Shown here one piece after another: positions 2,792-50,510 of a stretch of 53,649 bases of DNA. Within the stretch, counting starts at the first letter, position 1. The number at the start of each line of letters is the position of its first letter. Source of the DNA: Defluviitaleaceae bacterium (GTDB lineage Bacteria; Bacillota; Clostridia; Lachnospirales; WRAX01); assembly GCA_009781625.1 (NCBI GenBank), contig WQVI01000001.1:1-53649 (forward strand), written 5' to 3'. Both the position numbers and the translations under genes were made by a program. The notes under the pieces are model-generated. The model was not told the DNA's origin. It ran no database searches and saw only the letters and a list, made by a program, of their open reading frames with translations.

Positions 2792-2801
2792 AAAAGCAGA
2801 G

Positions 2802-3350: not shown

Positions 3351-3454
3351 TGGATTGCTTCGGCCATAGGCTGCGCTGGCTTTTAACTTGCCATTGGCCT
3401 CGCAATGGCGGTTGAATTGTCATTTTATAATGCAGTTCAAGGCCGAAACAATAC
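3351..3454 (-). repeat. Solo, shortened copy of the hairpin repeat family that forms the array at 36887-37617 (opposite orientation)
   Basis: tggattgcttcggcc...ccattggcctcgcaatgg..ggttgaatt...aggccgaaacaatac matches the reverse complement of an array unit. The ends are self-complementary. Confidence 0.6.
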
Positions 3455-3547
3455 ATAATTCGCGTATACAACGGAACATTATCCCTCAAAATAACGTCAT
3501 ATAAACGTTGCACAAAATAATCCCTAAAACCAAAAGGAGATGTTAAG

Positions 3548-4261: not shown

Positions 4262-4274
4262 CAATATCATTCAT

Positions 4275-4300
4275 AGGGGCGGGCGCTCTCGCTCGCCCTT
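4275..4300 (+). terminator. GC-rich hairpin (REP-like) after the SIMPL gene
   Basis: aggggcgggcg-ctct-cgctcgcccttt followed by aatatt. Confidence 0.4.
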
Positions 4301-4321
4301 TAATATTCAAAGGAGAAAATC

Positions 4322-5218: not shown

Positions 5219-5511
5219 AGATATTTTTCGCGATATTGGGCGGCATAATCGTCATACTAGGCGTAATGGTTTGTATCAACATGTTGATAGACCGCCAGTT
5301 TGTCCTCTTCGACTTTTGGGTAATCTTCGTTACCTTCTTCATAACCCTGCTAATTTCTGCCATCCCTTTTGGCATAGCGGCGGCGTTTGCAAGGCTGGAT
5401 AAACTGGAATACGCCAAAAGAGAGGACTATAGACTGCTGGAGCGCAAGGTCATCGCCCTGGAAAGGGCGGCTAAAGATAAAGAGCAGGAGACTAAAACCC
5501 ATGGAGACTAA
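5215..5511 (+). CDS. Small membrane protein, unknown function
   Basis: ATGA overlap with the ftcD stop. Three hydrophobic helices and a charged tail. Confidence 0.45.
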   Translation: MKIFFAILGGIIVILGVMVCINMLIDRQFVLFDFWVIFVTFFITLLISAIPFGIAAAFARLDKLEYAKREDYRLLERKVIALERAAKDKEQETKTHGD

Positions 5512-5803
5512 ATTAGCAAGAATGGCTTTATTTAGAATCCTTTTGCTTATCGCAGGCCTCATCTGCCTGGCCCTTTCCATGTATTACCTATACCAACTAA
5601 CCTTCCTGGGGCTTTGGCATGACACAAATATACGCATTCCACGGCTTATCCAATTCTTTGGCGGTGTGACTTTCATAGTCCTTGGCCGCATTTTGAAAAA
5701 TCAAGAGGACATCATCCGTTTGTTGTACGAAAGGAGAAATGATAGCGAAAATGCTGGATTTACTGATAAAGAACGCCCATCTGGCGACGCCCAAGGGCAA
5801 TAG
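5501..5803 (+). CDS. Small membrane protein, unknown function (uncertain)
   Basis: METKLARMALFRILLLIAGLICLAL... has two or three hydrophobic helices. The tail overlaps the hutI start by ~50 nt, which lowers confidence. Confidence 0.3.
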   Translation: METKLARMALFRILLLIAGLICLALSMYYLYQLTFLGLWHDTNIRIPRLIQFFGGVTFIVLGRILKNQEDIIRLLYERRNDSENAGFTDKERPSGDAQGQ

Positions 5804-6968
5804 CCCCAAAAGAGGCGCGATGATTGGACAGATATCCATAGAAAAAGACATAAACATCGGCATTGCTGACGGCAAAATTGCCTACATAGGCCATGACGCA
5901 CCCGAGGCCGCAAAGGTGCATGACGCCGAGGGCCATCTTGTAACCCCCGGCCTTGTGGACAGCCACACCCACCTAGTTTTCGGCGGCTTTCGTCAGCACG
6001 AGCTTGCGCTAAAGCTTGATGGTGCGGACTATCTGGAGATTTTGGCCGCAGGCGGCGGCATATTGTCCACCGTAAATGCCACGCGCGCAGCAGATTTTGA
6101 CGAGCTTTACGCCAAAGCGGGCGCATTTCTGGATGACATGCTGGCCCATGGCACGACAACCGTCGAGGCAAAGTCAGGCTATGGTCTTGAAACCGAAACC
6201 GAGCTTAAACAACTGAAAGTTGTGGCAAAGCTGCAACAAGAACATCCGATGGATGTTGTGTCCACTTTTATGGGCGCTCACGCCATCCCTCAAAAATACA
6301 AGCAAAACCCCGACGACTATGTAAATTTGGTGGTTGATGAAATGATACCGGCAGTCGCGCAGCAAAATTTGGCTGAATATTGCGACATCTTTTGCGAAAA
6401 AGGCGTGTTTGATATTGCGCAAAGCAGAAAGATACTCAAGGCTGCTAAAAGCGCGGGTCTTGGCATAAAAATCCATGCCAATGAAATTAATAATCTTGGC
6501 GGAGCCATGCTTGCCGCAGAAGTTGGTGCCACGTCCGCCGAGCATATGATAGCCTCTGACCAATCGGACATTGAGGCCCTAGTAAAATTTGGTATCATAG
6601 CCATCCTTTTGCCCACAACCAGTTTCTACCTCGGCAAGCCCTTTGCCCCAGCCCGTCAAATGCTTGACAGAGGCGCTATGATAGCCATCGCCAGCGACTT
6701 TAACCCCGGCAGCAGCCCCAATTTCAATTTACAGCTTTCCATGACCCTGGCCTGCCTAAAATATGGCCTAAAGCCCGCCGAAGTGCTAACGGCTGTGACG
6801 CTTAACGCCGCCTGGGCCATAGGCCGCGGTGCCACGAAGGGCACCATTGAAGAAGGCAAAGATGCCGACATAGTTATCTGGAATTGCCCTGATTTGGACT
6901 ATTTGTTCTACAGATTTGGCAATAATCAAGCAAAAACCGTGATAAAGAATGGAGAGATAATCATCTGA
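5739..6968 (+). CDS. hutI: Imidazolonepropionase
   Basis: LDLLIKNAHL...GLVDSHTHLVFGG, an amidohydrolase fold typical of HutI. The start is ATG 5739 or, more likely from family N-termini, ATG 5751. Confidence 0.9.
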   Translation: MIAKMLDLLIKNAHLATPKGNSPKRGAMIGQISIEKDINIGIADGKIAYIGHDAPEAAKVHDAEGHLVTPGLVDSHTHLVFGGFRQHELALKLDGADYLEILAAGGGILSTVNATRAADFDELYAKAGAFLDDMLAHGTTTVEAKSGYGLETETELKQLKVVAKLQQEHPMDVVSTFMGAHAIPQKYKQNPDDYVNLVVDEMIPAVAQQNLAEYCDIFCEKGVFDIAQSRKILKAAKSAGLGIKIHANEINNLGGAMLAAEVGATSAEHMIASDQSDIEALVKFGIIAILLPTTSFYLGKPFAPARQMLDRGAMIAIASDFNPGSSPNFNLQLSMTLACLKYGLKPAEVLTAVTLNAAWAIGRGATKGTIEEGKDADIVIWNCPDLDYLFYRFGNNQAKTVIKNGEIII

Positions 6969-7597
6969 TGAAACTAACCGAAATGAAACTTGCAGAATTT
7001 TGTAACGCCGTGGCTTCAAAAGAGCCGGCCCCGGGCGGCGGCTCTGTAGCCGCAATGTCGGCATCCATGGGCATTAGTCTTGTAGGCATGGTTGCAAACC
7101 TAACTATAGGCCGCAAAAAATACGCAGAGCATGAAGGCCTTATGCAGGAAATCCTGGCAGAAGCGGAAGCCCTGCGCCAAAAGCTTGTTTGCGCTATAGA
7201 TCGCGACACCGAAGCTTACAACGCTGTTTCCGCCGTATTTTCCATGCCAAAAGAAACCGACGAGGAAAAAGCAGCCCGCACAGCCGCCATGCAAACCGCG
7301 CTAAAAGCCGCAACCGAGGTGCCTCACGAGGTTATGCAGCTATGCCACGCTTCGCTAACATTGGCCCAACGCGCCGTGGGCACCAGCAACACCAATGCCG
7401 CATCAGACCTTGGCGTTGCCGCCCACAACCTGCTTGCGGGCACCCACAGCGCATGGATGAATGTGCTAATTAACCTCTCGGGCATAAAAGACGAGGCCTT
7501 TGTGGCAACAAAAAGAAGTGGCGGCGAAGAAATTATCGCCACCGCAGAAAAAGCTGCAAAATCAATAATTGCCCATGTTATGACAGAAATCAGCTAA
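6968..7597 (+). CDS. Formiminotetrahydrofolate cyclodeaminase (cyclodeaminase/cyclohydrolase family)
   Basis: LAEFCNAVASKEPAPGGGSVAAMSASMG motif. The start overlaps the hutI stop. Confidence 0.85.
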   Translation: MKLTEMKLAEFCNAVASKEPAPGGGSVAAMSASMGISLVGMVANLTIGRKKYAEHEGLMQEILAEAEALRQKLVCAIDRDTEAYNAVSAVFSMPKETDEEKAARTAAMQTALKAATEVPHEVMQLCHASLTLAQRAVGTSNTNAASDLGVAAHNLLAGTHSAWMNVLINLSGIKDEAFVATKRSGGEEIIATAEKAAKSIIAHVMTEIS

Positions 7598-7601
7598 TTG
7601 A

Positions 7602-7626
7602 AAAAGCCGCCTAAATGGCGGCTTTT
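7602..7626. terminator. Bidirectional intrinsic terminator between the hut cluster and the convergent CPBP gene
   Basis: aaaagccgcc-taaa-tggcggctttt, with A-run and T-run on either side. Confidence 0.8.
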
Positions 7627-7648
7627 GCTATGCTCATAGTATTTCAAT

Positions 7649-8311
7649 TTAAAAGAAAAATCCTGTAACAACTGGTATAAGTAAATTATGTAAGGCATGG
7701 GCAACAATCAGCGTTAGCAGGGTGCAGTGCTTAAACCTGTCCCTGCAAAGGCACCAATAGATGCCTATTATAGTTGTGACTACGATTTGAAGTGGGTTCC
7801 AATTAAGGATGTGGAACAACCCAAAAAGCACGGAAGATATAAGGATGGCAAACCACTTTGAATTGTTGATATCTTGAAGCTTTTTGAAAATATGTCCGCG
7901 GAAAATAATTTCTTCAACCAAGGCAACGCTTAGAAGAATCCGAACAAATTCCAAAACAACGGTTAGGGGGTTCATTTCTTGATGAAAGCCCATCTGGAAG
8001 CCAAATAGGCCAGGCAAAGCTATGAAAATAAACAACGAAACCGCCGCAACAGGCACACCAAGCAAAATTTGCATGGGGATATTTTCTTTGGAAAAGCCGA
8101 TGTCTCCAAGGCCCTCTTTGTCGCGGCGCATAAAGAAAATTGTGGCCGCAAGCATCGGCCACCACGCCGCAGTCATCAAAATTAGCTGCATAGCAAGGGG
8201 GAAGCCTCGCGCTATCCCATTAACCCAGCCCACAAGCAAAAGCGCAACAAGGGTAAAGACAAAAACTATGGCAACTGTAAGGATATCTCTTCTTTTATTA
8301 GATTTTGTCAC
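7649..8311 (-). CDS. CPBP family intramembrane glutamic endopeptidase (CAAX protease-like)
   Basis: Multi-pass membrane protein with EEIIFRG, FGLFH and HALHN motifs. Confidence 0.8.
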   Translation of the reverse strand: MTKSNKRRDILTVAIVFVFTLVALLLVGWVNGIARGFPLAMQLILMTAAWWPMLAATIFFMRRDKEGLGDIGFSKENIPMQILLGVPVAAVSLFIFIALPGLFGFQMGFHQEMNPLTVVLEFVRILLSVALVEEIIFRGHIFKKLQDINNSKWFAILISSVLFGLFHILNWNPLQIVVTTIIGIYWCLCRDRFKHCTLLTLIVAHALHNLLIPVVTGFFF

Positions 8312-8749
8312 TTATTTGTCCCCCTGCCTGGATAAAATCTCCATCCGCTCTTCATGGCTGACAATTTTGTCTATCTGATGCAACATCCACCCATATCCAA
8401 ACCCATCGGCAAACATGGCGTTTTTCACACCAAAATCCGGCATGTCATTTATGCCAAAAATCTCTTTGCAGCCGGCAGCGATGGCCGCATCAAAAGTCTT
8501 TTTGATATCAGGCACTGCAATGTTTAACCACATAGACTGAGGCTGTCCTTCCTGGGGCGCAAAAAGATGAAAATTAGGGTTTTCATTAAGCAAATGAAAA
8601 CGTGTGCCATATATTGTAAACACTGCCTCGCTGCCCTGGGGCCCGGCATCCGTCACTTCCACGCGCACCACGTCAAAAATCTTTTCATAAAGCTCTAATG
8701 CCTTGATAGAATCCTTCACAACCATATCAATTTCTACGCCTGTAATCAT
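8312..8749 (-). CDS. VOC/glyoxalase family protein (PhnB-like)
   Basis: ~145 aa with a VOC-like pattern. ATG at 8749 is preceded by gggggaaag. Confidence 0.6.
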   Translation of the reverse strand: MITGVEIDMVVKDSIKALELYEKIFDVVRVEVTDAGPQGSEAVFTIYGTRFHLLNENPNFHLFAPQEGQPQSMWLNIAVPDIKKTFDAAIAAGCKEIFGINDMPDFGVKNAMFADGFGYGWMLHQIDKIVSHEERMEILSRQGDK

Positions 8750-8762
8750 CACTTTCCCCCTG

Positions 8763-9212
8763 TTAATGAACAGCAAGCTTGCTCGCTGCCCTTTGCTTGT
8801 TTAAAATATAGCTGGCACTTTCGGAAAAATCGCTGGCAATTGTCTCAATCCTCTCCTCTTGCGCACGTATCTTCATGTCTAGATCCAACACCTCATTAAT
8901 GCTAAATTGCAGATGCCTTATTTTTTCTTCGTGTTTAGCACTTTCTTCTTCAAATTCGTCGGCAATACTGTCAAAAATACTTTGAAATACCTCATCGCAA
9001 GCCAGCACGTCATCAATTTGCTTTTGTTTTTCCTTGCTCATCTCCAAAAGAAACGCGTTTCTTTCATCCGAAGAGGTTGAAAGATACAGCGTTTCCTGGT
9101 TTTCGCTTATATTAAGCACAGCAACAAGTGCCCCATGCTTTTTATCCAAAATATCTTGAAGAAGGGTTAGCTTGGTTTCAAATCTCTCCTTCTCGTTAAG
9201 GCTGTAGTTCAT
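8763..9212 (-). CDS. Hypothetical helical/coiled-coil protein
   Basis: 149-aa charged helical ORF, overlapping the upstream deacetylase gene by 4 nt. Confidence 0.45.
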   Translation of the reverse strand: MNYSLNEKERFETKLTLLQDILDKKHGALVAVLNISENQETLYLSTSSDERNAFLLEMSKEKQKQIDDVLACDEVFQSIFDSIADEFEEESAKHEEKIRHLQFSINEVLDLDMKIRAQEERIETIASDFSESASYILNKQRAASKLAVH

Positions 9213-10165
9213 TGTGTTCCTCCAACACTGTGATATATGCTTCTGTATATCTCACCGGCTTGCATCGTCATGGTGTTTATCTCAAAAAGCTCTTCAACTG
9301 TCACAAAGGCAAATCCTTGTTCTATCAAAATATCTATGGCCATGATGGCCGCCTCAATAGAGCTTTCATGGATATCGTGCAAAAGCACCACGCTGCCGTC
9401 AACGGCATGGTCTACAATATGGTCTCGCACCAGGGCTGCATTTCTAAAAGACCAATCCCTGGGGTCAACACTCCATAGCACTACAGACATATCCATTTCA
9501 CGGGCAACCTCAAGCACAGCGGTATTTCGCGCGCCATAGGGCGGCCTAAGGGTTGTGGGCACTGTCCCCGTTATGGCCTCGATGCTTCGGTTTGTGCGGT
9601 ATATCTCATCAATAATTCCTTGGCGGCTTATCCTGGTAAAAAACGGATGCCCAAAAGAATGGTTGCCTATAAGATGCCCTTCTTCGTACATCCTTGCCAC
9701 AATGTGGGGGTGCCTATCTACTTCCATACCCAAAAGAAAGAAGGTTGCCCTCACATCTCTTGCATACAAAGCGTCCAGCAAAATCGGCGTTAGTGTGGGG
9801 TGGGGGCCATCGTCAAATGTGATGGCAATGTGGCCCACAAAGCTCTTTTCCTCTTCCTCAATATATCCTTCATTGATATAATTGTTATTATTTGTCGTTA
9901 TATTATTCATAGCTATCTCGGCCTCTAAATGTGTAATGATATCTACAAAAATCTTTTGCCAGTTTGGAAAATTAAAGTTGTCTACATTGGGGGATGCGGG
10001 CACCTGGATAGTTGCGGATAGCTCTTCAATATGGGTTTCTCTGGGCTTGTCTTCATTTGTTATCATTGCCGCATCAAAGTGCGCCAAAACAAATCCCTTG
10101 CCGGCACATCCCACAAAAATAGCCGAAAATATTAACATATACAGCACAATTAAAGCTTTTTTCAC
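9209..10165 (-). CDS. Polysaccharide deacetylase (NodB-domain) lipoprotein
   Basis: Lipobox LIFSAIFVGCAG. NodB motifs IAITFDDGPHP, GNHSFGHP and LLHD. Confidence 0.85.
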   Translation of the reverse strand: MKKALIVLYMLIFSAIFVGCAGKGFVLAHFDAAMITNEDKPRETHIEELSATIQVPASPNVDNFNFPNWQKIFVDIITHLEAEIAMNNITTNNNNYINEGYIEEEEKSFVGHIAITFDDGPHPTLTPILLDALYARDVRATFFLLGMEVDRHPHIVARMYEEGHLIGNHSFGHPFFTRISRQGIIDEIYRTNRSIEAITGTVPTTLRPPYGARNTAVLEVAREMDMSVVLWSVDPRDWSFRNAALVRDHIVDHAVDGSVVLLHDIHESSIEAAIMAIDILIEQGFAFVTVEELFEINTMTMQAGEIYRSIYHSVGGTQ

Positions 10166-10317
10166 AGGCAGCCCCCTAAGTTACGGTAGTATAACTATGG
10201 TTAATAAAAATATTTCCCGACACTTAATATAATTATACTGCATTCTTTTTAAATTTCAAGACCTTTTGGCAGCTATAAGAAAATTTAATATATCGTAACA
10301 TTTTTAGCATATTTCTC

Positions 10318-10346
10318 TTGACATGCGCCACCAAACATGATAATAT
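10318..10346 (+). promoter_or_regulatory. Sigma-A type promoter upstream of rpmG-secE-nusG
   Basis: TTGACA, 17-nt spacer, TAATAT. Confidence 0.5.
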
Positions 10347-10418
10347 TATCTCGTGCCAAAAATTATGGCTTTTTTTAATATGTTCTTGAAATCAATTTTA
10401 CTACAATGAGGTGGAGAA

Positions 10419-10568
10419 ATGAGAACCAAAATCACACTAGCTTGTACAGAGTGCAAACAGCGCAATTACGAAACAAAAAAAGAGCGTAAAAACCACCCTG
10501 ATAGGATGGAATTTAAAAAACATTGCAAATTTTGCAACAAGCACACACCACACAGAGAAACCAGATAA
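10419..10568 (+). CDS. rpmG: 50S ribosomal protein L33 (not in the supplied ORF track; below the size cut-off)
   Basis: Manual translation [51 protein letters not shown] is ggtggag. Canonical position before secE. Confidence 0.9.
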
Positions 10569-10571
10569 CTT

Positions 10572-10595
10572 GTAGGGGCGAACTGCGTTCGCCCG
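10572..10595 (+). repeat. REP hairpin, type 1 (GTAGGGGCGAAC-N-GTTCGCCCG)
   Basis: gtaggggcgaactgcgttcgcccg lies between rpmG and secE. It is the same motif as the copies around RAYT-1. Confidence 0.8.
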
Positions 10596-10615
10596 ATTAA
10601 AAAGGACGTGAAAAA

Positions 10616-10834
10616 ATGGAAGAAAAGAAAAAAGAAGGCCGTTTTTCAGAATGGTTTAGCGGCATCATAGGCGAATTTAAGCGCATAACCTGGCCGGACC
10701 GTAAAACCCTTGTTAAAATGACTGTTACCGTTATCATCACAAGCGGCATCTTCGGCGGCATTATTGTAGCCTACGATTTTGTTTTAGGTGCCGGATACAA
10801 CGGGCTTGTTGGGCTTGTTGACATGCTTAGATAG
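10616..10834 (+). CDS. secE: Preprotein translocase subunit SecE
   Basis: 72 aa with EFKRITWPDRKTL followed by a single TM helix. rpmG-secE-nusG synteny. Confidence 0.9.
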   Translation: MEEKKKEGRFSEWFSGIIGEFKRITWPDRKTLVKMTVTVIITSGIFGGIIVAYDFVLGAGYNGLVGLVDMLR

Positions 10835-10852
10835 AACGGAATGAGGTGAAAT

Positions 10853-11380
10853 ATGACAGAAGTTGCCCCAAGGTGGTATGTGGTACACACCTATTCCGGC
10901 TATGAAAACAAGGTAAAGGCAAATTTGGAAAAGATTATCGAAAACAGGGGTATGCAGGAGCAAATTCTTGAGGTTTCCGTCCCAATTCAAAACGTAGTTG
11001 AAGTTAAAAACGGCGTGAAGAAGACGGTGGCCAAAAAGGTTTTTCCCGGCTATGTCCTCGTTTTTATGCATATGAATGACGAAACATGGTATGTCGTGCG
11101 TAACACCCGCGGCGTTACCAGCTTTGTGGGTCCCGGCAGCAAGCCCGTGCCCCTTTCTGAAGACGAAATACGCTTCATGGGCCTTATTGAGGACCTCGAA
11201 GAGGTGATAGATCTTGACGTGGGCGATGCCGTGCGTATTACAACAGGGCCTTTTGAGGATTCTGTCGGTACGGTAACAGAAGTAAACCAAGCCCGCAAGA
11301 TGGTTGTTGTTTCTCTAACAATTTTTGGCAGAGAAACACCGGTTGAACTGGATTATATACAAATTGAAAAAATGGGTTAA
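10853..11380 (+). CDS. nusG: Transcription termination/antitermination protein NusG
   Basis: WYVVHTYSGYENKVK N-terminus and a KOW region. Synteny supports the call. Confidence 0.95.
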   Translation: MTEVAPRWYVVHTYSGYENKVKANLEKIIENRGMQEQILEVSVPIQNVVEVKNGVKKTVAKKVFPGYVLVFMHMNDETWYVVRNTRGVTSFVGPGSKPVPLSEDEIRFMGLIEDLEEVIDLDVGDAVRITTGPFEDSVGTVTEVNQARKMVVVSLTIFGRETPVELDYIQIEKMG

Positions 11381-11429: not shown

Positions 11430-11855
11430 ATGGCAAAAAAAGTAACAGGCTTAATTAAATTTCAAATACCTGCGGGTAAAGCCACACCGGCACCGCCTGT
11501 TGGCCCGGCACTTGGCCAACACGGCGTAAACCTGATGGGCTTTTGTAAAGAATTTAACGAGCGTACATCAAGACAAGCGGGCCTTATCATTCCCGTTGTT
11601 ATCACAGTTTACGCCGACAAAAGCTTCACCTTCATCACCAAAACACCGCCTGCGCCTGTTTTGTTGAAAAAAGCAGCGGGCTTGGAAAAAGCCAGCGGCG
11701 TGCCTAACAAAGAAAAAGTTGGCACAGTGACAGAAGCTCAAGTGAAAGAAATTGCGGAAACAAAAATGGCCGACCTTAACGCTGCCAGCCTAGAAACTGC
11801 CATGAGCATGATAAAAGGTACGGCGCGTAGCATGGGCCTTACAGTAGAAGGCTAA
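11430..11855 (+). CDS. rplK: 50S ribosomal protein L11
   Basis: [34 protein letters not shown] is canonical L11. Confidence 0.97.
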
Positions 11856-11868
11856 GGAGGAATATTTT

Positions 11869-11949
11869 ATGAAGAACTTCTTACAATTTGCAATTCCATT
11901 TGTAATTGCTTTCGTTGCGGTTATAATAATTATGCAAGTTTTGTTCTAG
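11869..11949 (+). CDS. 26-codon hydrophobic micro-ORF (MKNFLQFAIPFVIAFVAVIIIMQVLF)
   Basis: Its SD plus spacer taaggaggaatattttATG repeats the rplK SD region. Its stop lies 3 nt before the ATG of the first paralog, which has no SD of its own. Confidence 0.4.
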   Translation: MKNFLQFAIPFVIAFVAVIIIMQVLF

Positions 11950-11952
11950 ACC

Positions 11953-12717
11953 ATGCATGATGATTTGCCCACAGAAAATCAACGAGAATTGCAGCTGCTG
12001 CAAGAAAAAGCCAATAGAGCAGACCAGCTTCAAGACTTGTTGCTTAAATTAGACCGCAAGGCACAATGGCTGAGAGGGGCAACAATTGCTCTAAGCATAA
12101 TAGTCTTAATAGGCGGTCTGGCTGCGTTTCGCGCAAACCACTATAACATTGTGCTTGCGCTAAACGGCATAACAGAAACCCACCGCCTAGGCGAGGATGT
12201 CGTAGTTACATTTGATGACCGTTGGTTTGGCAATAACAACGCAATGCGCTCGATACTTTGGCAAGAAGGCGATGAGATGGGCAATTTTGTTTCGTTGCGC
12301 CAAAACAGCTTGGGCTTTTGGTTTATAGCCAGCGAATATGGGGGTGTTTGGCGTACCGCTTCCGGCGGCGGACTTGTCACATGGCCTGTCCCCCTTTGGC
12401 AATTAAACCATTTTGACGACCCGCGATACGGACGCCACCGTCATAATTGGGCGACGATTACCATTCATCAGCGACATCTCGGAACAACTACTTCGATCTC
12501 CCCTTCTTGGGATTTTGGGCGGGTTGCATACTATCACAACACCAACGCAATAGCCCTAATAGAGCTTGATCACTCTCTTTTGCCAGACGGTATAACGGCA
12601 GATATACGGCAATGGGGTTCGTTTTATGTTATACAACTGGACATTGCTATTAGAGATTTTTGGCAACCTGAAATAACGCCATTGATTGAAGATTTGGTCA
12701 GGGATTTTGTTGAATAA
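11953..12717 (+). CDS. Unknown single-pass membrane protein, paralog 1 of 3
   Basis: Charged N-terminus, TM helix ALSIIVLIGGLAAF, then a beta-rich ~190-aa ectodomain. Blocks NGITETHRLGED, YYHNTNAIALIELDHSLLP and VIQLD are shared with the next two ORFs. Confidence 0.7.
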   Translation: MHDDLPTENQRELQLLQEKANRADQLQDLLLKLDRKAQWLRGATIALSIIVLIGGLAAFRANHYNIVLALNGITETHRLGEDVVVTFDDRWFGNNNAMRSILWQEGDEMGNFVSLRQNSLGFWFIASEYGGVWRTASGGGLVTWPVPLWQLNHFDDPRYGRHRHNWATITIHQRHLGTTTSISPSWDFGRVAYYHNTNAIALIELDHSLLPDGITADIRQWGSFYVIQLDIAIRDFWQPEITPLIEDLVRDFVE

Positions 12718-20161: not shown

Positions 20162-22996
20162 GTGTCGAAAAACAAAATTGTGATAAAGGGCGCAAGAGAA
20201 AACAATTTGAAAAACATAGATTTAGAGATACCACGGGATGCGCTGGTGGTGCTGACGGGGGTTTCGGGCAGCGGCAAAAGTAGCCTGGCCTTTGAGACGC
20301 TGTATGCCGAAGGGCAACGGCGTTATATGGAAAGCCTTTCCAGCTATGCGCGCCAATTCCTAGGGCAGATGGAAAAGCCCGATGTAGATTCGATAGAGGG
20401 CTTGTCGCCTGCCATATCCATAGACCAAAAGAGCACAAACCAAAACCCCCGCTCTACCGTAGGCACGGTTACAGAAATTTACGATTATCTGCGCCTGCTT
20501 TTCGCCCGCGTAGGCATCCCCCATTGCCCAAAATGCGGCAGGGAGATTACGAAACAAACCGTAGACCAAATTGTTGACCAAATTATGGAGCTTGCCGAGG
20601 GCACGCGCTTGCAGCTGCTGGCCCCTGTGGTGCGCGCCCGTAAAGGCGAGCATACCAAGCTACTGGACGACGCCAAACGCAGTGGCTACACCCGCGTGCG
20701 CGTAAACGGCATAGTACAAGAACTTGCCGACGAAATAAAGTTGGACAAAAACAAGCGCCACAGCATTGAAATTGTAGTGGACAGGCTTGTGGTAAAAGAT
20801 GGCGTGCAAAAGCGGCTTTCAGAATCCGTCGAGACCGTAATGGGCCTTACGGACGGCATTTTGCTCGTGGACGTTAATGGCGAGCGCGACCTCAGCTTCT
20901 CCCAAAACTTCTCCTGCCCGAACCACGGCATAAGCTTACCCGAAATAGAGCCCCGGATGTTTTCCTTTAATAATCCCCAAGGTGCCTGCCCCGAATGCAG
21001 CGGCCTTGGCTTTAAAATGGAATTTGACCCCGATTTGATAGTGCCAAATCCCGATCTTTCCATCGCCGGCGGCGCAATTGTCGCCCCCGGCTTTAACCAG
21101 GCAGGCAATTCCGGCAGTTGGGGCGGCAATGTACTGGCCCATTTGGCAAAGCATTACAACTTCAACCTCAATATCCCATTTAAGAAACTTGGGCTGGAGA
21201 CGCGCCGCATCATCCTTTACGGAAACGACGGCGAGGCCTTCCCCACACAATATAAAGGCGTGGACGGCCAGCCCAGGGTGTTTATGCACCATTGGGAAGG
21301 CATCATCCCCGCCCTTGCGCGCCGCTATAAAGAGACAGGCAGCGATTGGAGCAAGCAGCATTACGAAGGCTTTATCACCAATATCGAATGTGACGCCTGC
21401 CATGGCAAGCGTCTTCGCGAGGAGATGCTGGCAGTGACGGTGGGCGGCACAAATATCGCCGACATATCTACCATGCCTGTTGCGCGCCTTAGCCAATTTT
21501 TCAACGAGCTGCGGCTTTCCCCAATGCACACCACCATCGCAGAGCGTATCTTGAAAGAAATTAAGGCCCGCGCCGGCTTTTTGGTGGATGTTGGCCTGGA
21601 TTATTTGACGCTGGCACGCGCTGCGGGCACCCTTTCAGGCGGCGAGGCCCAGCGCATACGCCTTGCAACCCAGATAGGCAGCGGCCTTGTGGGCGTTGTG
21701 TATATTTTGGACGAGCCCAGCATAGGCCTGCACCAGCGCGACAACGACAAGCTGCTAAAGACGCTGAAACACCTGCGAGACCTGGGCAATACCCTCATCG
21801 TGGTGGAGCACGACGAGGACACCATGCGAGAAAGCGACCATATAGTGGACATCGGCCCCGGTGCTGGCGCATATGGCGGCGAGGTAGTATTTAACGGCAC
21901 CGTGGAAGATATATTAACCGCCGACACCGTAACGGGTGAGTACATGAGCGGTCGCAAGAAAATTGATGTTCCAAAGGAGCGCAGGAAGGAAAACGGCAAG
22001 AAACTGTCAATAATTGGTGCCTGCGAAAATAACCTAAAAAATGTGGATGTAGAAATTCCTCTGGGGATTTTTGTCTGCATCACCGGTGTGTCGGGCAGCG
22101 GCAAGTCCAGCCTTATCAACGAAATTTTGTACAAGCGCTTGGCGCGAGACCTTAACCGCGCGAAAATCAAGCCCGGTAAGCACGAAGACATCAGCGGACA
22201 AGAGCATCTGGATAAAATTATCAACATAGACCAAAGCCCCATAGGCCGCACGCCACGAAGTAATCCCGCCACATACACGGGCTTATTTGACCTTGTGCGC
22301 GACCTTTTTTCAGCAACGCCGGAAGCTAAGGTGCGCGGTTATCAAAAGGGACGCTTTAGCTTTAACGTAAAGGGCGGCCGCTGCGAGGCCTGCAATGGCG
22401 ACGGCATGATAAAAATTGAAATGCACTTTTTGCCCGACATCCACGTGCCTTGCGAAATTTGCCATGGCAAGCGATATAACCGCGAGACGCTGGAAGTGCG
22501 CTACAAAGACAAGAATATCGCCGACGTGCTGGACATGACTGTGGACGAAGCCCTAACATTTTTTGAGAACCTACCCCGCCTGCGCGAAAAAATACAGACG
22601 CTACACGACGTGGGTCTGTCCTATGTGAAGCTTGGCCAATCCTCCACCACCCTTTCAGGCGGCGAGGCCCAGCGCGTAAAGCTGGCCACAGAGCTTTCCC
22701 GCCGCAACACAGGCAAAACCATTTATGTGCTGGACGAGCCCACAACAGGCCTGCATATGGCTGATGTCCACAAACTGGTAGACATTTTGCAAAAACTAAC
22801 GGACGGCGGCAACACCGTCGTTGTAATAGAGCATAACCTAGACGTCATCAAAACAGCAGACTATATCATAGACTTAGGCCCAGAAGGCGGCGATGGCGGC
22901 GGCATGGTAGTAGCCAGCGGCACGCCGGAGCAAGTGGCAAAAAGCAAAAAATCCTACACAGGCCATTACCTGAAGAAGGCCCTGAAGCGCAAATAG
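20162..22996 (+). CDS. uvrA: Excinuclease ABC subunit A
   Basis: 944 aa with two ABC modules ([20 protein letters not shown] twice) and zinc-finger Cys clusters. GTG start. Confidence 0.97.
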
Positions 22997-37783: not shown

Positions 37784-38821
37784 ATGGAGAAAAAACTTTG
37801 CAAATACGGTACCAACAGGGTGATAGCGCCCCAGGGCGTGCTGCCCCAGGCGGCCCAGAAAATTGACAATGATATGACCATCCATGAAAACGAAATTTTA
37901 ATTGACGTTATCTCGCTTAATGTCGATTCTGCCTCGTTTACACAGCTTCGCGGTGAGGCAGGCGACGATGAGGGCAAGATAGCCGCCAAAATTATGGAAA
38001 TTGTGGCAGAACGTGGCAAGATGCAAAACCCCGTAACGGGCAGCGGCGGCATGTTAATTGGCCGCGTGGCGCAAATAGGCGCGGCTCTTACAGGGCGCGA
38101 TATACAGGTTGGCGACAAGATAGCCACGCTGGTTTCCCTATCGTTAACACCGCTAAAAATCAATAAAATCAACGCCATCCAGATGAATATAGATAGGGTG
38201 GACGTGGATGCACAGGCCATCCTCTTTGAAACAGGCATATACGCCAAGCTGCCCGAAGATATGAGCGAAGCCCTGGCCCTGGCCGCCCTGGACGTGGCCG
38301 GTGCCCCCGCCCAAACCGCCAAACTGGCGCGCCCGGGTGACGCCGTGCTTGTTTTAGGCGCAGGGGGAAAGTCCGGCATGATGTGCTGCTTTGAGGCCAT
38401 GCGCCGCGTTGGCCCAACGGGCAATGTCGTGGGCATGGTGCGTAGCCAAGCTGACCGTGAAAAGCTGATGGCTAACGGGCTATGCCACGACGTTATCGTA
38501 TCTGATGTAACCCAGGCCCTAGATGTGCTGGAAAAAGTGCTTGCCGCCAACAATGGGCGCGAATTTGATATTAGCATCAACTGCGTAAATGTCCCCAACA
38601 GCGAAATGGCCAGCATCCTGCCCGTGCGCGATGGCGGCACGGTGTATTTCTTCTCCATGGCCGTTAGCTTTACAAAAGCCGCGCTGGGCGCGGAAGGCGT
38701 TGGCAAGGATGTTAACATGATAGTGGGCAATGGCTACACCCGCGGCCATGCGGAAATTACACTGGCACAGCTGCGAGAAAGTGCCGCGCTACGTCAGATT
38801 TTTGAGGAAAAATATGTGTGA
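37784..38821 (+). CDS. kdd: L-erythro-3,5-diaminohexanoate dehydrogenase
   Basis: 345 aa. N-terminus KYGTNRVIAPQGVLPQAA..., NPVTGSGGML and a GAGGKSG Rossmann motif. Pathway context. Confidence 0.8.
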   Translation: MEKKLCKYGTNRVIAPQGVLPQAAQKIDNDMTIHENEILIDVISLNVDSASFTQLRGEAGDDEGKIAAKIMEIVAERGKMQNPVTGSGGMLIGRVAQIGAALTGRDIQVGDKIATLVSLSLTPLKINKINAIQMNIDRVDVDAQAILFETGIYAKLPEDMSEALALAALDVAGAPAQTAKLARPGDAVLVLGAGGKSGMMCCFEAMRRVGPTGNVVGMVRSQADREKLMANGLCHDVIVSDVTQALDVLEKVLAANNGREFDISINCVNVPNSEMASILPVRDGGTVYFFSMAVSFTKAALGAEGVGKDVNMIVGNGYTRGHAEITLAQLRESAALRQIFEEKYV

Positions 38822-38831
38822 TAATGATGCC

Positions 38832-39341
38832 ATGACGCCGCATACGGGCGAACACAGTTCGCCCCTACGAAGGCGCAAAGCAAACCGTTTAAAAGATTAC
38901 GACTATAGCCAAGCAGGTGCGTATTTTGTGACGATATGCACAAAAGACCATGCCCATTTATTTGGAAGCATCAGTAGGGGCGAACTGTGTTCGCCCGTAT
39001 GCCAAACGCATCTGTCACCAATTGGAGAAATTGTCGAATCTGAAATAGAAAAGCTTTCAGCAACTTATGATATGGCCTATGTCAATCTCTATGTCATCAT
39101 GCCAAATCATGTCCATATGATAATCGTTATTCGACATAATAACGGGCGAACACAGTTCGCCCCTACGTTGTCGCGCATCATAAAGCAATGGAAAGGGGCA
39201 ATAACAAAAAGAATTGGCCGCCCTATCTGGCAAAAATCCTTTTACGACCGTATAATCCGCAATGAAGGCGACTATCTTCGCATTGCCGAATATATAGAAA
39301 CCAACCCGGCCAAATGGCAAGAAGACGAATACTATTCGTAG
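38832..39341 (+). CDS. REP-associated tyrosine transposase (RAYT, IS200-like HUH/Y1), copy 1
   Basis: YFVTICT, HUH motif MPNHVHMII, WQKSFYDRIIRN and EYIETNP. Three type-1 REP hairpins lie in frame (38844-68, 38974-98, 39142-66) and a fourth spans the stop. The start could also be ATG 38814. Confidence 0.8.
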   Translation: MTPHTGEHSSPLRRRKANRLKDYDYSQAGAYFVTICTKDHAHLFGSISRGELCSPVCQTHLSPIGEIVESEIEKLSATYDMAYVNLYVIMPNHVHMIIVIRHNNGRTQFAPTLSRIIKQWKGAITKRIGRPIWQKSFYDRIIRNEGDYLRIAEYIETNPAKWQEDEYYS

Positions 39342-39362
39342 GGGCGAACTGCGTTCGCCCGT
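39338..39362 (+). repeat. REP hairpin type 1, overlapping the RAYT-1 stop codon
   Basis: gtaggggcgaactgcgttcgcccgt. Confidence 0.85.
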
Positions 39363-39397
39363 AACTGCGCATCCAATCAACAACAAAGGAGACCCCC

Positions 39398-40639
39398 ATG
39401 AAAAACAACATCTTCAAAAACATCCCCGCCGAAAATTGGAACAACTGGCAGTGGCATTTGCGCAATAAAATTGAGACGGTGGAAGATTTGAAAAAACTTT
39501 GTGACATCAGCGCAGCCGATGAAGTGGGCATTGCGCGCTGTCTTGAAACTTTTCGCATGGCCATCACGCCTCATTATTTTTCGCTGATAGATTTGCATGA
39601 CGAGCGCGACCCCGTGCGTGCCCAATGTGTGCCCAGCGTCTATGAAACCCATTTTGCCGGTGAAGATTTGGAAGACCCCCTGCATGAGGACGAGGATAGC
39701 CCGGCACCGGGCCTAACCCACCGCTATCCGGACCGTGCATTGCTTTTGGTAACGGACCAATGCGCCATGTATTGCCGCTTTTGCACCCGGCGGCGTTTTG
39801 CGGGACAAAAGGATGGCGCGCTGCCTATATCACAGGTGGATGCGGCCATAGACTATATCGAAAAGACGCCCGCCATCCGCGATGTGCTGCTATCCGGCGG
39901 CGATGCCATGCTGCTGCCTGATGATGCGCTAGAGCATATCCTAAAACGCCTGCGGGCCATACCCCATGTGGAGATAATCCGCTTTGGCTCGCGCCTGCCC
40001 GTGGTTTTGCCCCAACGCATCACGGATGAGCTATGCAACTTGCTGAAAAAATATCATCCCATCTGGGTTAACACCCATTTTAACCATCCGGCGGAAATTT
40101 CCCAGGCATCCATCGAAGCTTGCGAAAAGCTGGCAAATGCGGGCATACCCCTAGGCAACCAATCTGTGCTTCTGGCAGGTGTAAATGATTGCGTTCATGT
40201 CATGAAGCAGCTTGTCCAGCAGCTGGTAAAAATACGCGTGCGCCCATACTATTTGTATCAATGCGACCTTTCGCTGGGCCTGTCCCATTTCCGCACGCCT
40301 GTGGCCAAAGGTATCGAGATTATCGAAGGCCTGCGCGGTCACACCTCGGGCTATGCCGTGCCCACCTTCGTTGTAGACGCGCCCGGCGGCGGCGGCAAGA
40401 TACCCGTCATGCCTAACTATGTGGTGTCCCACGGCACACACAAGGTCATCCTGCGCAACTACGAAGGCGTCATCACCACATATACCGAGCCTGAAACCTA
40501 CCAACATACCTGCAACTGCCCTGTGTGCCGCGGAGATGAAAAGGCACAATATGAGGGACTTGCAGCGTTGATGAACAACCAAAAGCTGGCGATAGAGCCG
40601 GCAGATTTGGCCCGGCGCAGGAGGAAACATAATGGGTAA
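39398..40639 (+). CDS. kamA: Lysine 2,3-aminomutase (radical SAM)
   Basis: CAMYCRFCTRRR (CxxxCxxC), LLSGGDAMLL and a C-terminal Cys cluster CNCPVC. Confidence 0.92.
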   Translation: MKNNIFKNIPAENWNNWQWHLRNKIETVEDLKKLCDISAADEVGIARCLETFRMAITPHYFSLIDLHDERDPVRAQCVPSVYETHFAGEDLEDPLHEDEDSPAPGLTHRYPDRALLLVTDQCAMYCRFCTRRRFAGQKDGALPISQVDAAIDYIEKTPAIRDVLLSGGDAMLLPDDALEHILKRLRAIPHVEIIRFGSRLPVVLPQRITDELCNLLKKYHPIWVNTHFNHPAEISQASIEACEKLANAGIPLGNQSVLLAGVNDCVHVMKQLVQQLVKIRVRPYYLYQCDLSLGLSHFRTPVAKGIEIIEGLRGHTSGYAVPTFVVDAPGGGGKIPVMPNYVVSHGTHKVILRNYEGVITTYTEPETYQHTCNCPVCRGDEKAQYEGLAALMNNQKLAIEPADLARRRRKHNG

Positions 40640-41171
40640 TGCGCCTTCTCGTAAGCCTAACCGCTTGGAAAATCACGACTATGCACAGCCTGGCACATAT
40701 TTTATCACAATATGCTCTAAAGGCCACCAGCAACTGTTTGGCACAATTGCCTTGGGGAGCGGGCGGCAAAATGCCGCCCCTACAAGCCTCATGAAGTTGT
40801 CGCCCATAGGAAGGATAGTTGAAGCAGAAATAATGCGGCTATCCCGCACCTATGAAGGGGTTTATGTAGACTGTTATGTCGTTATGCCAAACCATGTTCA
40901 TATGATCATCGTCATCCGCAACATCCACGGGCGGCAAGATGCCTCCCCTACGATATCCCAGATGATGAATCAATGGAAAAGGGCAGCTTCTATAAAAGCA
41001 GGCTCATCTATTTGGCAAAAATCCTTTCATGACCATATAATACGCAACCAGGTTAGATATAACCTCATTGTTCAATATATAGCATGTAATCCAGAAATTT
41101 GGGAGAAGGACATTTATTTCATGGGGCCTGGACGTCCTTACATCGCCCCTTCGGACCGCCCCATTTTGTAG
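40632..41171 (+). CDS. REP-associated tyrosine transposase (RAYT), copy 2
   Basis: YFITICS, MPNHVHMII, WQKSFHDHIIRN and QYIACNP. The ATG overlaps the kamA 3' end by 8 nt. Type-2 REP hairpins lie in frame at 40759-83 and 40927-51. Confidence 0.8.
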   Translation: MGNAPSRKPNRLENHDYAQPGTYFITICSKGHQQLFGTIALGSGRQNAAPTSLMKLSPIGRIVEAEIMRLSRTYEGVYVDCYVVMPNHVHMIIVIRNIHGRQDASPTISQMMNQWKRAASIKAGSSIWQKSFHDHIIRNQVRYNLIVQYIACNPEIWEKDIYFMGPGRPYIAPSDRPIL

Positions 41172-41270
41172 GGGCGGCTTGTAGCCGCCCGTGGATAGTT
41201 AAATTTTACGTAGCATCGGAATTGCTGCTATAGACGTTGTATACCGTAGGGGCGGCTTGTAGCCGCCCGT
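41168..41270 (+). repeat. Two direct REP type-2 hairpins (41168-41192 and 41246-41270)
   Basis: Both read gtaggggcggcttgtagccgcccgt. The first overlaps the RAYT-2 stop codon. Confidence 0.85.
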
Positions 41271-41295: not shown

Positions 41296-42849
41296 ATCAA
41301 CCCCAAACTAAACCTAAGCCAGCACCAAATAGACCAATGCCGCAGCCACGCCAAAAACATCGCTGCTGATATGCAAAACTTCATCGCTCAGCACACCACC
41401 GTTGCCACAGAGCGCACGGTTTGCCGCCTACTGGGCATTGACGGCGTGGACGACATCGGCGTGCCCATGCCCAATGTGGTAGTGGCCCATCTGGCTGAAA
41501 ACCACCTGCTGGGCGCAGGAGCCGCCTTGATGCTGGGCAATGCCATGGCGCATCTTGGCAAAAGTCCGCAAAAAATCGCTGAGGGCATCAGCAGTGGTCA
41601 GATTCATTTGTCAAAAATACCTATGGGCGATGTGGCCGTAATCACCCAGGCCATAAACACCACTGCGGTCCAGTCCGTGGAGAAAATCCGCGCAAACCGC
41701 ATGGCCCGTGAGGATTTTTTGGCCCAACATCCGGATAGACAGGCGCCGCTGCTTTATGTCATCGTTGCCACAGGCAATATTTACGAGGACATAACACAGG
41801 CCCAAGCCGCCGTGGCTCAAGGTGCCGACATCATCGCCGTCATCCGCACCACAGGCCAAAGCCTGCTGGACTATGTGCCCTACGGCGCCACCACAGAGGG
41901 TTTTGGCGGCACCTACGCCACCCAAGAAAACTTTCGCCTGATGCGCGCCGCCCTTGACGAGGCGGGCCACGCAGCGGGCCGCTACATCCGCCTTTGCAAC
42001 TACGCCAGCGGCCTATGTATGCCCGAAATTGCCGCCATGGGCGCGTTAGAGCGTCTTGACGTAATGCTTAACGATGCCCTTTACGGCATACTTTTTCGTG
42101 ACATCAACATGAAGCGCACCATGATAGACCAATACTTTTCCCGCGTCATTAACGGCTTTGCGGGTATTATCATCAACACGGGCGAGGACAACTACCTTAC
42201 CACGGCGGATGCGGTAGAGGAAGCGCATACCGTTCTTACCAGTCAGTTTCTTAATGAGCAATTCGCACTTCTGGCGGGCCTTCCTGAAGAGCAAATGGGC
42301 CTTGGCCACGCTTTTGAAATTGCCCCCGACGTAAAAAACGGCTTTTTATACGAAATTGCCCAAGCCCAGATGGCCCGCGAGATTTTTCCCACAGCACCAC
42401 TAAAATACATGCCGCCTACAAAGTTTATGACAGGCGACATCTTTATGGGTACCGTACAAAACGCGCTGTTTAACGCCGCCACCGTGATGACGGGGCAAAA
42501 AATCCATCTTTTGGGAATGCTGACAGAAGCCATACACACGCCGTTTATGTCAGACCGCGCCCAAGCGCTGGATTCTGCTGGCTACATCGCCCATACCATG
42601 GCCGACATGGCCAATGAAATAGAATTTAAGCAAGACGGCATCATACAGCAGCGCGCCGCAGAGGTGCTGGACAAAGCCTGTGGCCTTCTGGCCACAATAG
42701 AGCAAAATAAGCTTTTTGCCACGCTAGAACAAGGCATCTTCGCGGGCATAAAGCGCGGCCGCGATGCAGGCAAGGGCCTAGATGGCGTTGTCCTCAAGGC
42801 CGAGGGTTATTTCAACCCATTTATTGACATGATGTTAGCGGGAGATTAA
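41296..42849 (+). CDS. kamD: Beta-lysine/D-lysine 5,6-aminomutase alpha subunit
   Basis: HTTVATERTVCRLLGIDGVD...LLYVIVATGNIYEDITQA...GATTEGFGGTYATQENFRLMR closely matches remembered KamD. The first ATG is at 41371, but homology (KLNLSQ...) continues upstream to an SD-positioned ATC at 41296, so the start is uncertain. Confidence 0.85.
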   Translation: MNPKLNLSQHQIDQCRSHAKNIAADMQNFIAQHTTVATERTVCRLLGIDGVDDIGVPMPNVVVAHLAENHLLGAGAALMLGNAMAHLGKSPQKIAEGISSGQIHLSKIPMGDVAVITQAINTTAVQSVEKIRANRMAREDFLAQHPDRQAPLLYVIVATGNIYEDITQAQAAVAQGADIIAVIRTTGQSLLDYVPYGATTEGFGGTYATQENFRLMRAALDEAGHAAGRYIRLCNYASGLCMPEIAAMGALERLDVMLNDALYGILFRDINMKRTMIDQYFSRVINGFAGIIINTGEDNYLTTADAVEEAHTVLTSQFLNEQFALLAGLPEEQMGLGHAFEIAPDVKNGFLYEIAQAQMAREIFPTAPLKYMPPTKFMTGDIFMGTVQNALFNAATVMTGQKIHLLGMLTEAIHTPFMSDRAQALDSAGYIAHTMADMANEIEFKQDGIIQQRAAEVLDKACGLLATIEQNKLFATLEQGIFAGIKRGRDAGKGLDGVVLKAEGYFNPFIDMMLAGD

Positions 42850-42912: not shown

Positions 42913-42937
42913 GTAGGGGCGAACTGTGTTCGCCCGT
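42913..42937 (+). repeat. REP hairpin type 1 between kamD and the GNAT gene
   Basis: gtaggggcgaactgtgttcgcccgt. Confidence 0.85.
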
Positions 42938-50411: not shown

Positions 50412-50510
50412 ACGGGCGGCAAAATGCCGCCCCTACTACGAACTTTTGCATCTCCTTGCAGGGCAAGGTTTTATCGGGACGGCTTGTAGGGGCGGCATTT
50501 TGCCGCCCGT
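50412..50510. repeat. Convergent REP type-2 doublet (50412-50436 inverted, 50486-50510 forward)
   Basis: acgggcggcaaaatgccgcccctac and gtaggggcggcattttgccgcccgt are exact reverse complements of each other. Confidence 0.85.

Follow-up and report, generated by a model that had tools for sequence, protein, structure and literature searches.

One family of repetitive extragenic palindromes (REPs) for each paralog of the REP-associated tyrosine transposases (RAYTs, or TnpAREP) was already described in 2010 (Nunvar 2010; PMC2817692), and a later survey likewise assigned each tnpAREP gene its own REP family (Quentin, Siguier, Chandler, Fichant 2018, BMC Genomics 19:475; PMC6006769). The same survey reported REPs lying in frame inside tnpAREP genes of TnpA_Y1 subclass 2.4, in the beta3/alphaC loop. 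These intragenic insertions were mostly placed in the interval from the HuH to the Y motif and left the frame intact, and the authors judged them probably neutral. In the E. coli enzyme, the GTAG foot of the REP is bound by residues W94, Q95, W99, E100, H101 and R104, and helix C lies in the REP minor groove (PMC3479197). REPs inside genes have so far been regarded as a curiosity. Here we analyze a 53,649-nucleotide (nt) stretch of a Defluviitaleaceae metagenome-assembled genome (MAG; contig WQVI01000001.1, hereafter the window), in which two RAYT genes, RAYT-1 and RAYT-2, carry REPs in frame at two equivalent sites, and we follow this layout through the family. The kind of feature is itself already known; what appears to be new is a fixed, inverted pair of REPs at two sites that change together. 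We found no description in the literature of a second fixed site, of an orientation rule or of concerted change of two copies, and a phrase search of Corneloup 2021 (PMC8266576) did not find intragenic REPs.

Results

Each RAYT in the window carries hairpins of its own REP type

The initial annotation of the window had placed eight hairpins in or beside the two RAYT genes. All eight were found at their coordinates (Table 1), and seven of them form an 8-bp stem with a 3-nt loop (-8.8 to -11.3 kcal/mol, z <= -3.3); the eighth, at site 2 of RAYT-2, is degenerate, however, and its stability is not significant (-5.2 kcal/mol, z -0.85). Two sequence types are present. The type-1 core, GGGCGAAC-N3-GTTCGCCC, has 6 matches in the window versus 0 expected, while the type-2 core, GGGCGGC-N5-GCCGCCC, has 7 when 2 mismatches are allowed, versus 0.34 expected. 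Because all of the elements share a GTAG-GGG...CCC-G frame, we consider them GTAG-tagged REPs. The types are divided cleanly between the paralogs, with type 1 at all four positions in or at RAYT-1 and type 2 at all four in or at RAYT-2 (chance probability ~0.006). Type 2 itself comprises two sub-variants, GGGCGGCA/TTT in the internal copy at 40761 and in a dispersed doublet (50414/50486), and GGGCGGCT/TGT in the flanking copies (41168, 41246). The doublet at 50414-50508 is identical in stem and loop to the internal copy of RAYT-2.

The peptides quoted for the hairpins in the initial annotation agree with the open reading frame (ORF) translations, and its proposal that the hairpins occupy homologous positions in the two genes was correct; the orientation, however, is not homologous. 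At site 1, RAYT-1 has the GTAG foot on the coding strand, which is the norm for the family, whereas the RAYT-2 copy is flipped and has it on the template strand, as an exception. In RAYT-1, the site-2 copy lies 143 nt downstream of the site-1 copy and is its reverse complement over 25 nt. A further type-1 REP at 38844-68 falls inside the ORF only if translation starts at the ATG at 38814 or 38832. One of these two starts is very likely on sequence grounds, since the conserved motif RK.NRL..YDYS lies upstream of every later start codon.

The inverted pair recurs at two sites across the family

RAYT-1 belongs to a large family, with 2954 homologs in a word-indexed search and 38,373 representative clusters at E <= 1e-3 in a full profile search. 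At the DNA level, the family was analyzed through 80 loci from reference genomes other than that of the window, with counts given for 83 homologous genes; outside the window, up to 10 kb of flanking sequence was included on either side of a locus. A GTAGG-anchored element was present at site 1 in 61 of the 83 genes, at site 2 in 72 and at both sites in 61. Perfect hairpins of at least 8 bp were found in 46% of site-1 and 56% of site-2 sequence windows, compared with 3.3% of random 100-nt windows. At site 1 the GTAG foot was nearly always carried by the coding strand, and at site 2 by the template strand, giving an inverted pair. When site 1 was compared with the reverse complement of site 2, copies from the same gene had a mean identity of 0.85 (median 0.92), versus 0.54 between genes, and their matching extended to the loops. 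An inverted repeat of at least 18 nt was detected in 36 of 84 genes, as opposed to 5 of 600 cross-gene controls. The layout was seen in dozens of independent assemblies, isolate genomes included, and the clade that carries it is centred on Clostridia (Oscillospiraceae, Acutalibacteraceae, Defluviitaleaceae). Within this clade the GGG...CCC foot of the stem was invariant or nearly so, and no REP of the double-foot form was found.

The stems themselves were diverse among genes (GGGCGAAC, GGGCGACC, GGGCGCAC, GGGCGGCA, GGGCGCTT, GGGAGGGG, GGGACGATG and GGAACGCCG), and REP type tracked protein relatedness. At site 2, the stem was common to more than 80% of protein pairs with over 70% amino acid (aa) identity; at site 1, stems were common to about half of such pairs. 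Below 50% identity, pairs almost never had a stem in common. Each paralog has a REP variant to itself, both within the gene and next to it, in the window as well as across the family. In an unbiased comparison, REP divergence between homologs tracked overall nucleotide divergence. A set of hand-picked homolog pairs (92-100% identity for the REP versus 53-69% for the rest) had suggested much stronger conservation of the internal REPs than of the gene around them; this claim was withdrawn, because the pairs had been chosen for sharing a REP and the comparison was therefore biased. REPs change over time, often by a switch of the whole type; the robust signal is that both internal copies change together with perfect pairing.

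Two further observations concern the distribution of these genes. A second paralog-specific case within one locus was found in Gemmiger formicilis (L030), in which two RAYT paralogs ~1.1 kb apart (10001-10474 and 11565-12050) each have their own internal inverted pair (GGCGGGGTG versus GGG[TC]CGATG). In addition, near-identical RAYTs of the GRTQFAPT type occur in MAGs labelled Betaproteobacteria, Zoogloeaceae, Desulfuromonadales, Defluviitaleaceae and Lachnospiraceae that come from similar, apparently termite-gut samples; their spread across phyla could reflect horizontal transfer or binning errors.

Reading frames and compensated changes point to constraint on the DNA

The same DNA is translated in two frames at site 1, giving either RGELCSP or VGANCVRP, and GRTQFAPT at site 2 is the reverse complement of the site-1 DNA. 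The commonest readings are 'VG...' at site 1 (GTA GGG) and '...PT' at site 2 (CCT ACN), while some clades use other frames (i.e., RGELCSP at site 1 in RAYT-1, and ..PPLQ or ..PLR at site 2 elsewhere). Stem positions 6-8 varied only through compensated changes. Covariation was detected at 6 of the 8 stem pairs, with 45 cells changed on both sides versus 11 in shuffles, a count that is partly circular and descriptive because the rows were preselected for perfect hairpins. Frames that differ between clades, together with compensated stem changes, argue for constraint on the DNA rather than on the peptide, and indicate that the conserved object is the DNA.

We also considered whether these segments are conserved protein motifs whose DNA is incidentally palindromic, or the result of chance or an assembly artefact. 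The peptide G-R-x-x-x-A-P-T at site 2 is nearly invariant in the closest homologs, and its P-T could cap helix C, as expected of a protein motif. However, identical DNA is translated in different frames depending on the clade, and peptide variation follows base pairing exactly. Identical elements also occur in intergenic DNA; moreover, chance would supply only the 0 and 0.34 matches given above, and the pattern recurs across dozens of independent assemblies, isolates among them. We therefore rejected the protein-motif and chance readings on the reading-frame and covariation data, and regard this group of alternatives as extremely improbable. The refuting condition set in the initial annotation, ancestral residues conserved in taxa without the REP, therefore did not refute it: the residues are not conserved as protein, with the frame changing from clade to clade and the stem pairs varying in a compensated way.

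Both sites fall in loops that are shorter in REP-free relatives

In an AlphaFold 2 (AF2) model of RAYT-1 (predicted local distance difference test score, pLDDT, 85), site 1 falls at the tip of a beta-hairpin (strands 44-48 and 56-60) that precedes helix A. Site 2 corresponds to residues 100-111, a loop that joins the HUH strand (92-99) to a helix (112-127) that aligns with helix C of E. coli TnpAREP. Alignment to the E. coli structure 4ER8 likewise places the site-2 REP just before helix C. Both sites lie in lower-confidence stretches of the modelled chain. Family members without REPs and outgroups instead have a tight turn at site 1, FGxIxxGxMxLxxxG, that is 7-8 residues shorter, and a site-2 loop that is 3-6 residues shorter. 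The short-turn set includes three outgroups from Bacteroidota and Chloroflexi that are 33-37% identical. The initial annotation had estimated that the site-1 segment is about 8 residues too long for the family and had found this consistent with in-frame insertion of a hairpin. Alignment with REP-free members confirmed the length difference and insertions at homologous loop positions of both sites, and the structure model, in which the sites are a loop and a hairpin tip, agrees with it.

Loops of intermediate character were also found. Some are relics in which the extra loop is kept and the hairpin is lost, for example AEAATGCS in L074, compared with VGAATCRP in a close relative. In others the REP-encoded units have multiplied: L078 (10001-10600) has three tandem GPSxTPAPTRExGT units at site 2, P0091 has two RGELxSP units at site 1, and P0070 likewise has extra units. 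The loops at both sites tolerate a variable number of REP copies.

REPs outside the genes

Dispersed copies are far more numerous than internal ones for the type-1 REP. Its exact 24-nt sequence has at least 154 matches in 120 metagenome contigs, and 149 of the 154 listed lie outside RAYT genes, mostly in intergenic DNA or just 3' of genes. In the window, dispersed copies of both types are also mostly just 3' of genes. External copies of an internal REP were 13-fold enriched in its own locus relative to other loci, and RAYT genes, with 3.7% of the bases, held 108 of 258 REP-like hairpins. Both RAYTs of the window take their stop codon from the TAG of a GTAG foot, and we considered whether this is a trait of the family; it was found in only 3 of 85 genes. 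The TAG also serves as the stop for 8 of 72 dispersed type-1 REPs near the 3' end of a gene (metagenome loci L084-L203), and its use as a stop is a general by-product of REP insertion at the ends of genes.

The gene could itself be the source of its REPs, with internal copies acting as master templates that seed and refresh the dispersed REPs of each paralog. Stem and loop are common to internal and dispersed copies (RAYT-2 40761 with 50414/50486, and RAYT-1 with 42913), and REP type switches along with the protein lineage, both of which fit such a source. However, outgroups and several members have flanking or dispersed REPs with none inside the gene, GTAG REPs accompany RAYTs that lack internal copies, for example in E. 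coli (PMC3479197), and all but 5 of the 154 listed type-1 matches from metagenomes lie outside RAYT genes. Furthermore, the 143-nt spacer between the copies shows no sign of co-mobilisation within the window, and the present data do not reveal the direction of copying. We consider a gene source improbable; as a general origin of REPs, which the initial annotation had raised, it is unlikely, as outgroups and some members have REPs only outside the gene. We also examined the internal pair as a mobile REPIN (a REP doublet). The pair has the inverted orientation of such an element, but a search of the 53.6-kb window found none of the 14-mers of its 143-nt spacer at a second place, and this candidate was rejected.

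Dense REP arrays were seen at two loci whose RAYT has no internal hairpins. At L045 (1-2221, 6846-8634), more than 20 copies of GGGCGATT/GGGCGGTT surround the gene, and L032 (Synergistaceae, 2457-10978) holds at least three REP types within 10 kb.

The two RAYT genes and their surroundings

Both proteins have the hallmarks of a Y1 HUH nuclease. The HUH motif lies on a beta-strand, MPNHVHMII, in RAYT-1 (codons 39108-39116) and RAYT-2 (40893-40901), and a single catalytic Tyr (Y..NP) lies in the C-terminal helix, as EYIETNP in RAYT-1 (Tyr codon 39291-39293) and QYIACNP in RAYT-2 (41076-41078). H92 and H94 were invariant in a 35-sequence alignment, and in the family alignment N157 and P158 were invariant and Y153 nearly so. 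RAYT-1 and RAYT-2 matched Pfam Y1_Tnp at 7e-5 and 0.023 and the NCBIfam model REP_Tyr_transpos (NF047646) at 65.2 and 55.3 bits, respectively; because both NCBIfam scores are under the curated cutoff of 80, we consider the proteins divergent members rather than equivalogs of the modelled group. A Foldseek search with the RAYT-1 model had E. coli TnpAREP bound to REP as its top hit (4er8_A, E 7.7e-8), followed by TnpA of ISDra2 and IS608, and the family profile matched 4ER8 in the PDB at 2e-11. In the W-Q...[FY]-x-[DE]-[HR]..R segment, IWQKSFYDRIIRN aligns with E. coli IWQPRFWEHAIRN. By this alignment, W, Q and R of the E. coli GTAG-binding residues are kept, while W99 is replaced by Y, E100 by D and H101 by R or H. 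Cleavage and rejoining of their own REP on single-stranded DNA is the predicted activity of both enzymes.

Table 1 RAYT genes and REP elements in the window, with positions counted from its first nucleotide.
Feature	Position	Strand	Remarks
RAYT-1 gene, HUH/Y1 nuclease, REP-associated tyrosine transposase-like	38814..39341	+	ORF with family and fold matches
Type-1 REP, N-terminal extension of RAYT-1, reads GEHSSPL	38844..38868	- (GTAG foot)	-8.8 kcal/mol, z -4.6
Type-1 REP, RAYT-1 site 1, reads RGELCSPV	38974..38998	+ (GTAG on coding strand)	-9.7 kcal/mol, z -5.2
Type-1 REP, RAYT-1 site 2, reads GRTQFAPT	39142..39166	- (GTAG on template strand)	-8.9 kcal/mol, z -3.8
Type-1 REP terminating RAYT-1	39338..39362	+	-9.7 kcal/mol; TAG of GTAG is the stop codon (39339-41)
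RAYT-2 gene, paralog of RAYT-1 (51% identical)	40632..41171	+	ORF with NCBIfam and Pfam matches
Type-2 REP (GGGCGGCA/TTT), RAYT-2 site 1, reads GRQNAAPT	40759..40783	-	-11.3 kcal/mol, z -3.3
Degenerate type-2 REP, RAYT-2 site 2, reads GRQDASPT	40927..40951	-	One stem mismatch
Type-2 REP (GGGCGGCT/TGT) terminating RAYT-2	41168..41192	+	-10.8 kcal/mol; TAG of GTAG is the stop codon
Second flanking type-2 REP (GGGCGGCT/TGT), downstream of RAYT-2	41246..41270	+	-11.3 kcal/mol
Dispersed type-1 REP, intergenic	10572..10594	+	
Dispersed type-1 REP, 64 nt downstream of kamD-like gene	42913..42935	+	
Dispersed inverted type-2 doublet (GGGCGGCA/TTT), REPIN-like	50414..50508	50414-36 on -, 50486-508 on +	

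The host region is part of a lysine-fermentation operon, in which a dehydrogenase-like gene (37784-38821), RAYT-1, lysine 2,3-aminomutase (39398-40639), RAYT-2 and the alpha subunit of lysine 5,6-aminomutase (41371-42849) follow one another. The dehydrogenase-like gene has a weak ADH_zinc_N match and is read as kdd from its gene context. The ATG of RAYT-1 at 38814 is preceded by a Shine-Dalgarno sequence, GAGGA (38804-08), and overlaps the upstream TGA stop at 38819-21; the ATG of RAYT-2 at 40632 is likewise preceded by GGAGG and overlaps the upstream TAA stop at 40637-39. These overlaps suggest that both RAYT genes are co-transcribed and translationally coupled with the catabolic genes.

Public annotation captures these genes poorly. 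RAYT-2 is listed only as a hypothetical protein (MCL2375798.1). RAYT-1 seems to be mis-called: the near-identical P0001 has 137 aa and starts at GTG 38926, which removes the conserved N-terminal motif, and the 169-aa RAYT-1 product was absent from the protein collection. Genes of this family are often unnamed or truncated at hairpins, which calls for caution with their annotation.

Two other palindromes were noted in the window. A degenerate REP with an ATAG foot (22993-96) supplies the stop of the ORF at 20162-22996, and a third GTAG-like palindrome, TAGGGGCGGGCGCTCTCGCTCGCCC, lies at 4274-4298, right after the stop of the ORF at 3548-4261. The latter may be another REP type that has no RAYT in the window.

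Discussion

Beyond what is directly visible, namely the sequence anatomy of the elements, their position and orientation across the family, their concert within genes, the constraint on DNA and their location in loops, we infer that the RAYT acts on its internal copies and that some mechanism keeps these copies matched. We lean slightly toward the reading that the internal elements are cognate REPs residing in two permissive loops, where turnover of REPs keeps them up to date and matched. Under this reading, the ancestor of the clade would have acquired a REP at two places, site 1 and site 2, and the layout would then have been inherited with the gene. The protein would tolerate any peptide that the hairpin encodes, while the DNA would retain the hairpin. 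Internal copies would be overwritten repeatedly by the current REP variant, in step with the dispersed family of the paralog. The overwriting could be the work of the RAYT, cutting and rejoining single-stranded DNA at GTAG-footed hairpins, or of repair between the inverted copies by template switching or gene conversion. As an outcome, enzyme and substrate would stay linked physically, and each strand of the gene would bear one recognisable hairpin.

Several observations weigh against turnover of resident REPs. Position and orientation are strict (about 45 genes versus 2 exceptions) and frames are mostly fixed, which is tighter than random re-insertion would give and may instead reflect selection on the elements. 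Because site 2 adjoins the DNA-binding helix C, its peptide should not be assumed inert and, judging from this placement, may have a function. Finally, an external copy with the same stem was found within flanks of up to 10 kb on either side for only 18 of 55 genes, and the GGAACGCCG pair of Ruminococcus flavefaciens was found nowhere outside two genes among the 205 loci compared, so an external supply for overwriting is not demonstrated everywhere.

A possible but distinctly less favoured explanation is that internal REPs are selected cis-acting sites, with the RAYT binding the hairpin on the strands of its own gene or on its mRNA. Such binding could hold down expression of the enzyme, serve to load it at the replication fork in cis, or shield the gene. 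Position, orientation and mostly also the frame are conserved among proteins that are only 35-60% identical, both copies stay mutually matched, and some pairs persist without detectable external copies nearby, all of which fit selection on the sites. A RAYT clade of Bacteroidota also has one GTAG foot per strand, by means of a single double-foot palindrome, GTAGAGACAAGGcatgCCTTGTCTCTAC. In addition, each RAYT of the window terminates in a REP lying immediately after its stop codon, and a REP near the stop codon reportedly lowers translation in E. coli, a result credited to Liang, Rudd and Deutscher in 2015. On the other hand, about a quarter of the members lack one or both hairpins and still have intact catalytic motifs, RAYT-2 has a decayed copy at site 2 and a flipped one at site 1, and, between homologs, the pace of REP divergence is roughly that of the remaining gene sequence. 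Turnover of resident REPs stays the reading that we prefer.

The broadest claim that could be made is that in-frame REPs are a selected, self-encoded substrate, that is, that RAYTs of this clade maintain, as two inverted single-foot REPs, one cognate hairpin with a GTAG foot on either strand of their gene. We put this forward tentatively and think it rather doubtful. The clade of Bacteroidota and Cyanobacteria would do the same with one double-foot palindrome, and the enzyme would use these sites in cis, whether for its loading or anchoring, as an operator for autoregulation or as a master copy. If the claim is true, each RAYT gene reports its own DNA specificity, and the 38,373 clusters would be ready-made pairs of enzyme and hairpin for finding out how RAYTs recognise REPs, which is an open question, as is why they persist. 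If the internal copies are a reliable mirror of the cognate REP, the gene by itself would reveal specificity, without whole genomes, and covariation between protein residues (e.g., in helix C) and hairpin bases would become feasible over thousands of genes. The strict layout of the inverted pair is also a testable handle on whether RAYTs act in cis upon their own genes. If the elements are merely tolerated passengers, our results extend the 2018 description to a large Clostridia-centred clade. The main value lies in the possibility that each gene records its own DNA specificity, and we rate the interest as moderate.

Comparison with known systems

The closest described systems are the tnpAREP genes of subclass 2.4 (PMC6006769), which we compared by their features. 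In both groups, REPs in the gene keep the frame; the variable beta3/alphaC loop is occupied, here by site 2 of RAYT-1; three G-C pairs form the foot of the REP stem, matched here by GGG...CCC; and the proteins have an N-terminal motif that is conserved but no extension at the C terminus. The family described here differs in having a second site, fixed at the tip of the beta-hairpin that precedes helix A, and in having two single-foot REPs that are inverted, 140-170 nt apart and change together; the subclass 2.4 paper reports no pairing, orientation rule or covariation. It is also centred on Clostridia, whereas subclass 2.4 belongs to Cyanobacteria or Bacteroidetes.

We reproduced a case of the subclass 2.4 type. 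Spirosoma and Runella have the double-foot palindrome GTAGAGACAAGGcatgCCTTGTCTCTAC, which encodes the peptide VETRHALSL of the beta3/alphaC loop and whose 28 nt are identical in Spirosoma pollinicola (L204) and Runella slithyformis (L205) and lie at about 10305-10336 in each; no site-1 insertion was found in the RAYT-like genes of these two genera. Among the Bacteroidota homologs listed, most of the longer ones have a variant of VETRHALSL. The Bacteroidota proteins with this insertion are relatives of those of Spirosoma sp. KNUC1025 and Fulvitalea, which are 33-37% identical to RAYT-1 and themselves lack a hairpin. A search of the plasmid collection for cyanobacterial examples returned none.

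E. coli TnpAREP and its REPtron (Ton-Hoang 2012; Messing 2012, PDB 4ER8, PMC3479197) share the HUH and Tyr motifs with RAYT-1 and RAYT-2 and are the best match by structure and hidden Markov model, with a GTAG-footed hairpin as the type of substrate and REPs clustered at the gene. The REPs of E. coli, however, are longer and imperfect and only flank the gene, and the enzyme, which lacks a hairpin extension at site 1, has a C-terminal tail with a regulatory role. In Pseudomonas and enterobacteria, the REPIN-RAYT systems (Bertels & Rainey 2011; Nunvar 2010, PMC2817692) resemble the present one in having one RAYT per REP family, several paralogs per genome with their own REPs, and inverted doublets such as that at 50414-50508. 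They differ in that the 143-nt spacer of the internal pair is coding sequence and is not repeated.

The TnpA proteins of the IS200/IS605 insertion sequences (IS608, ISDra2) have the same Y1 HUH fold and likewise recognize a hairpin together with a 5' tetranucleotide on single-stranded DNA. Their hairpins, in contrast, lie outside the ORF, in the same orientation, and delimit a unit that moves with the gene. Finally, in-frame palindromic repeats are known elsewhere, as in the GTAG/CGTC REPs (Di Nocera 2013, PMC3733652) and the Rickettsia palindromic elements (RPEs), and are similarly tolerated in surface loops. Those repeats are scattered over unrelated genes, whereas here the repeat sits in the gene of its own enzyme, at sites that are conserved across a large family.

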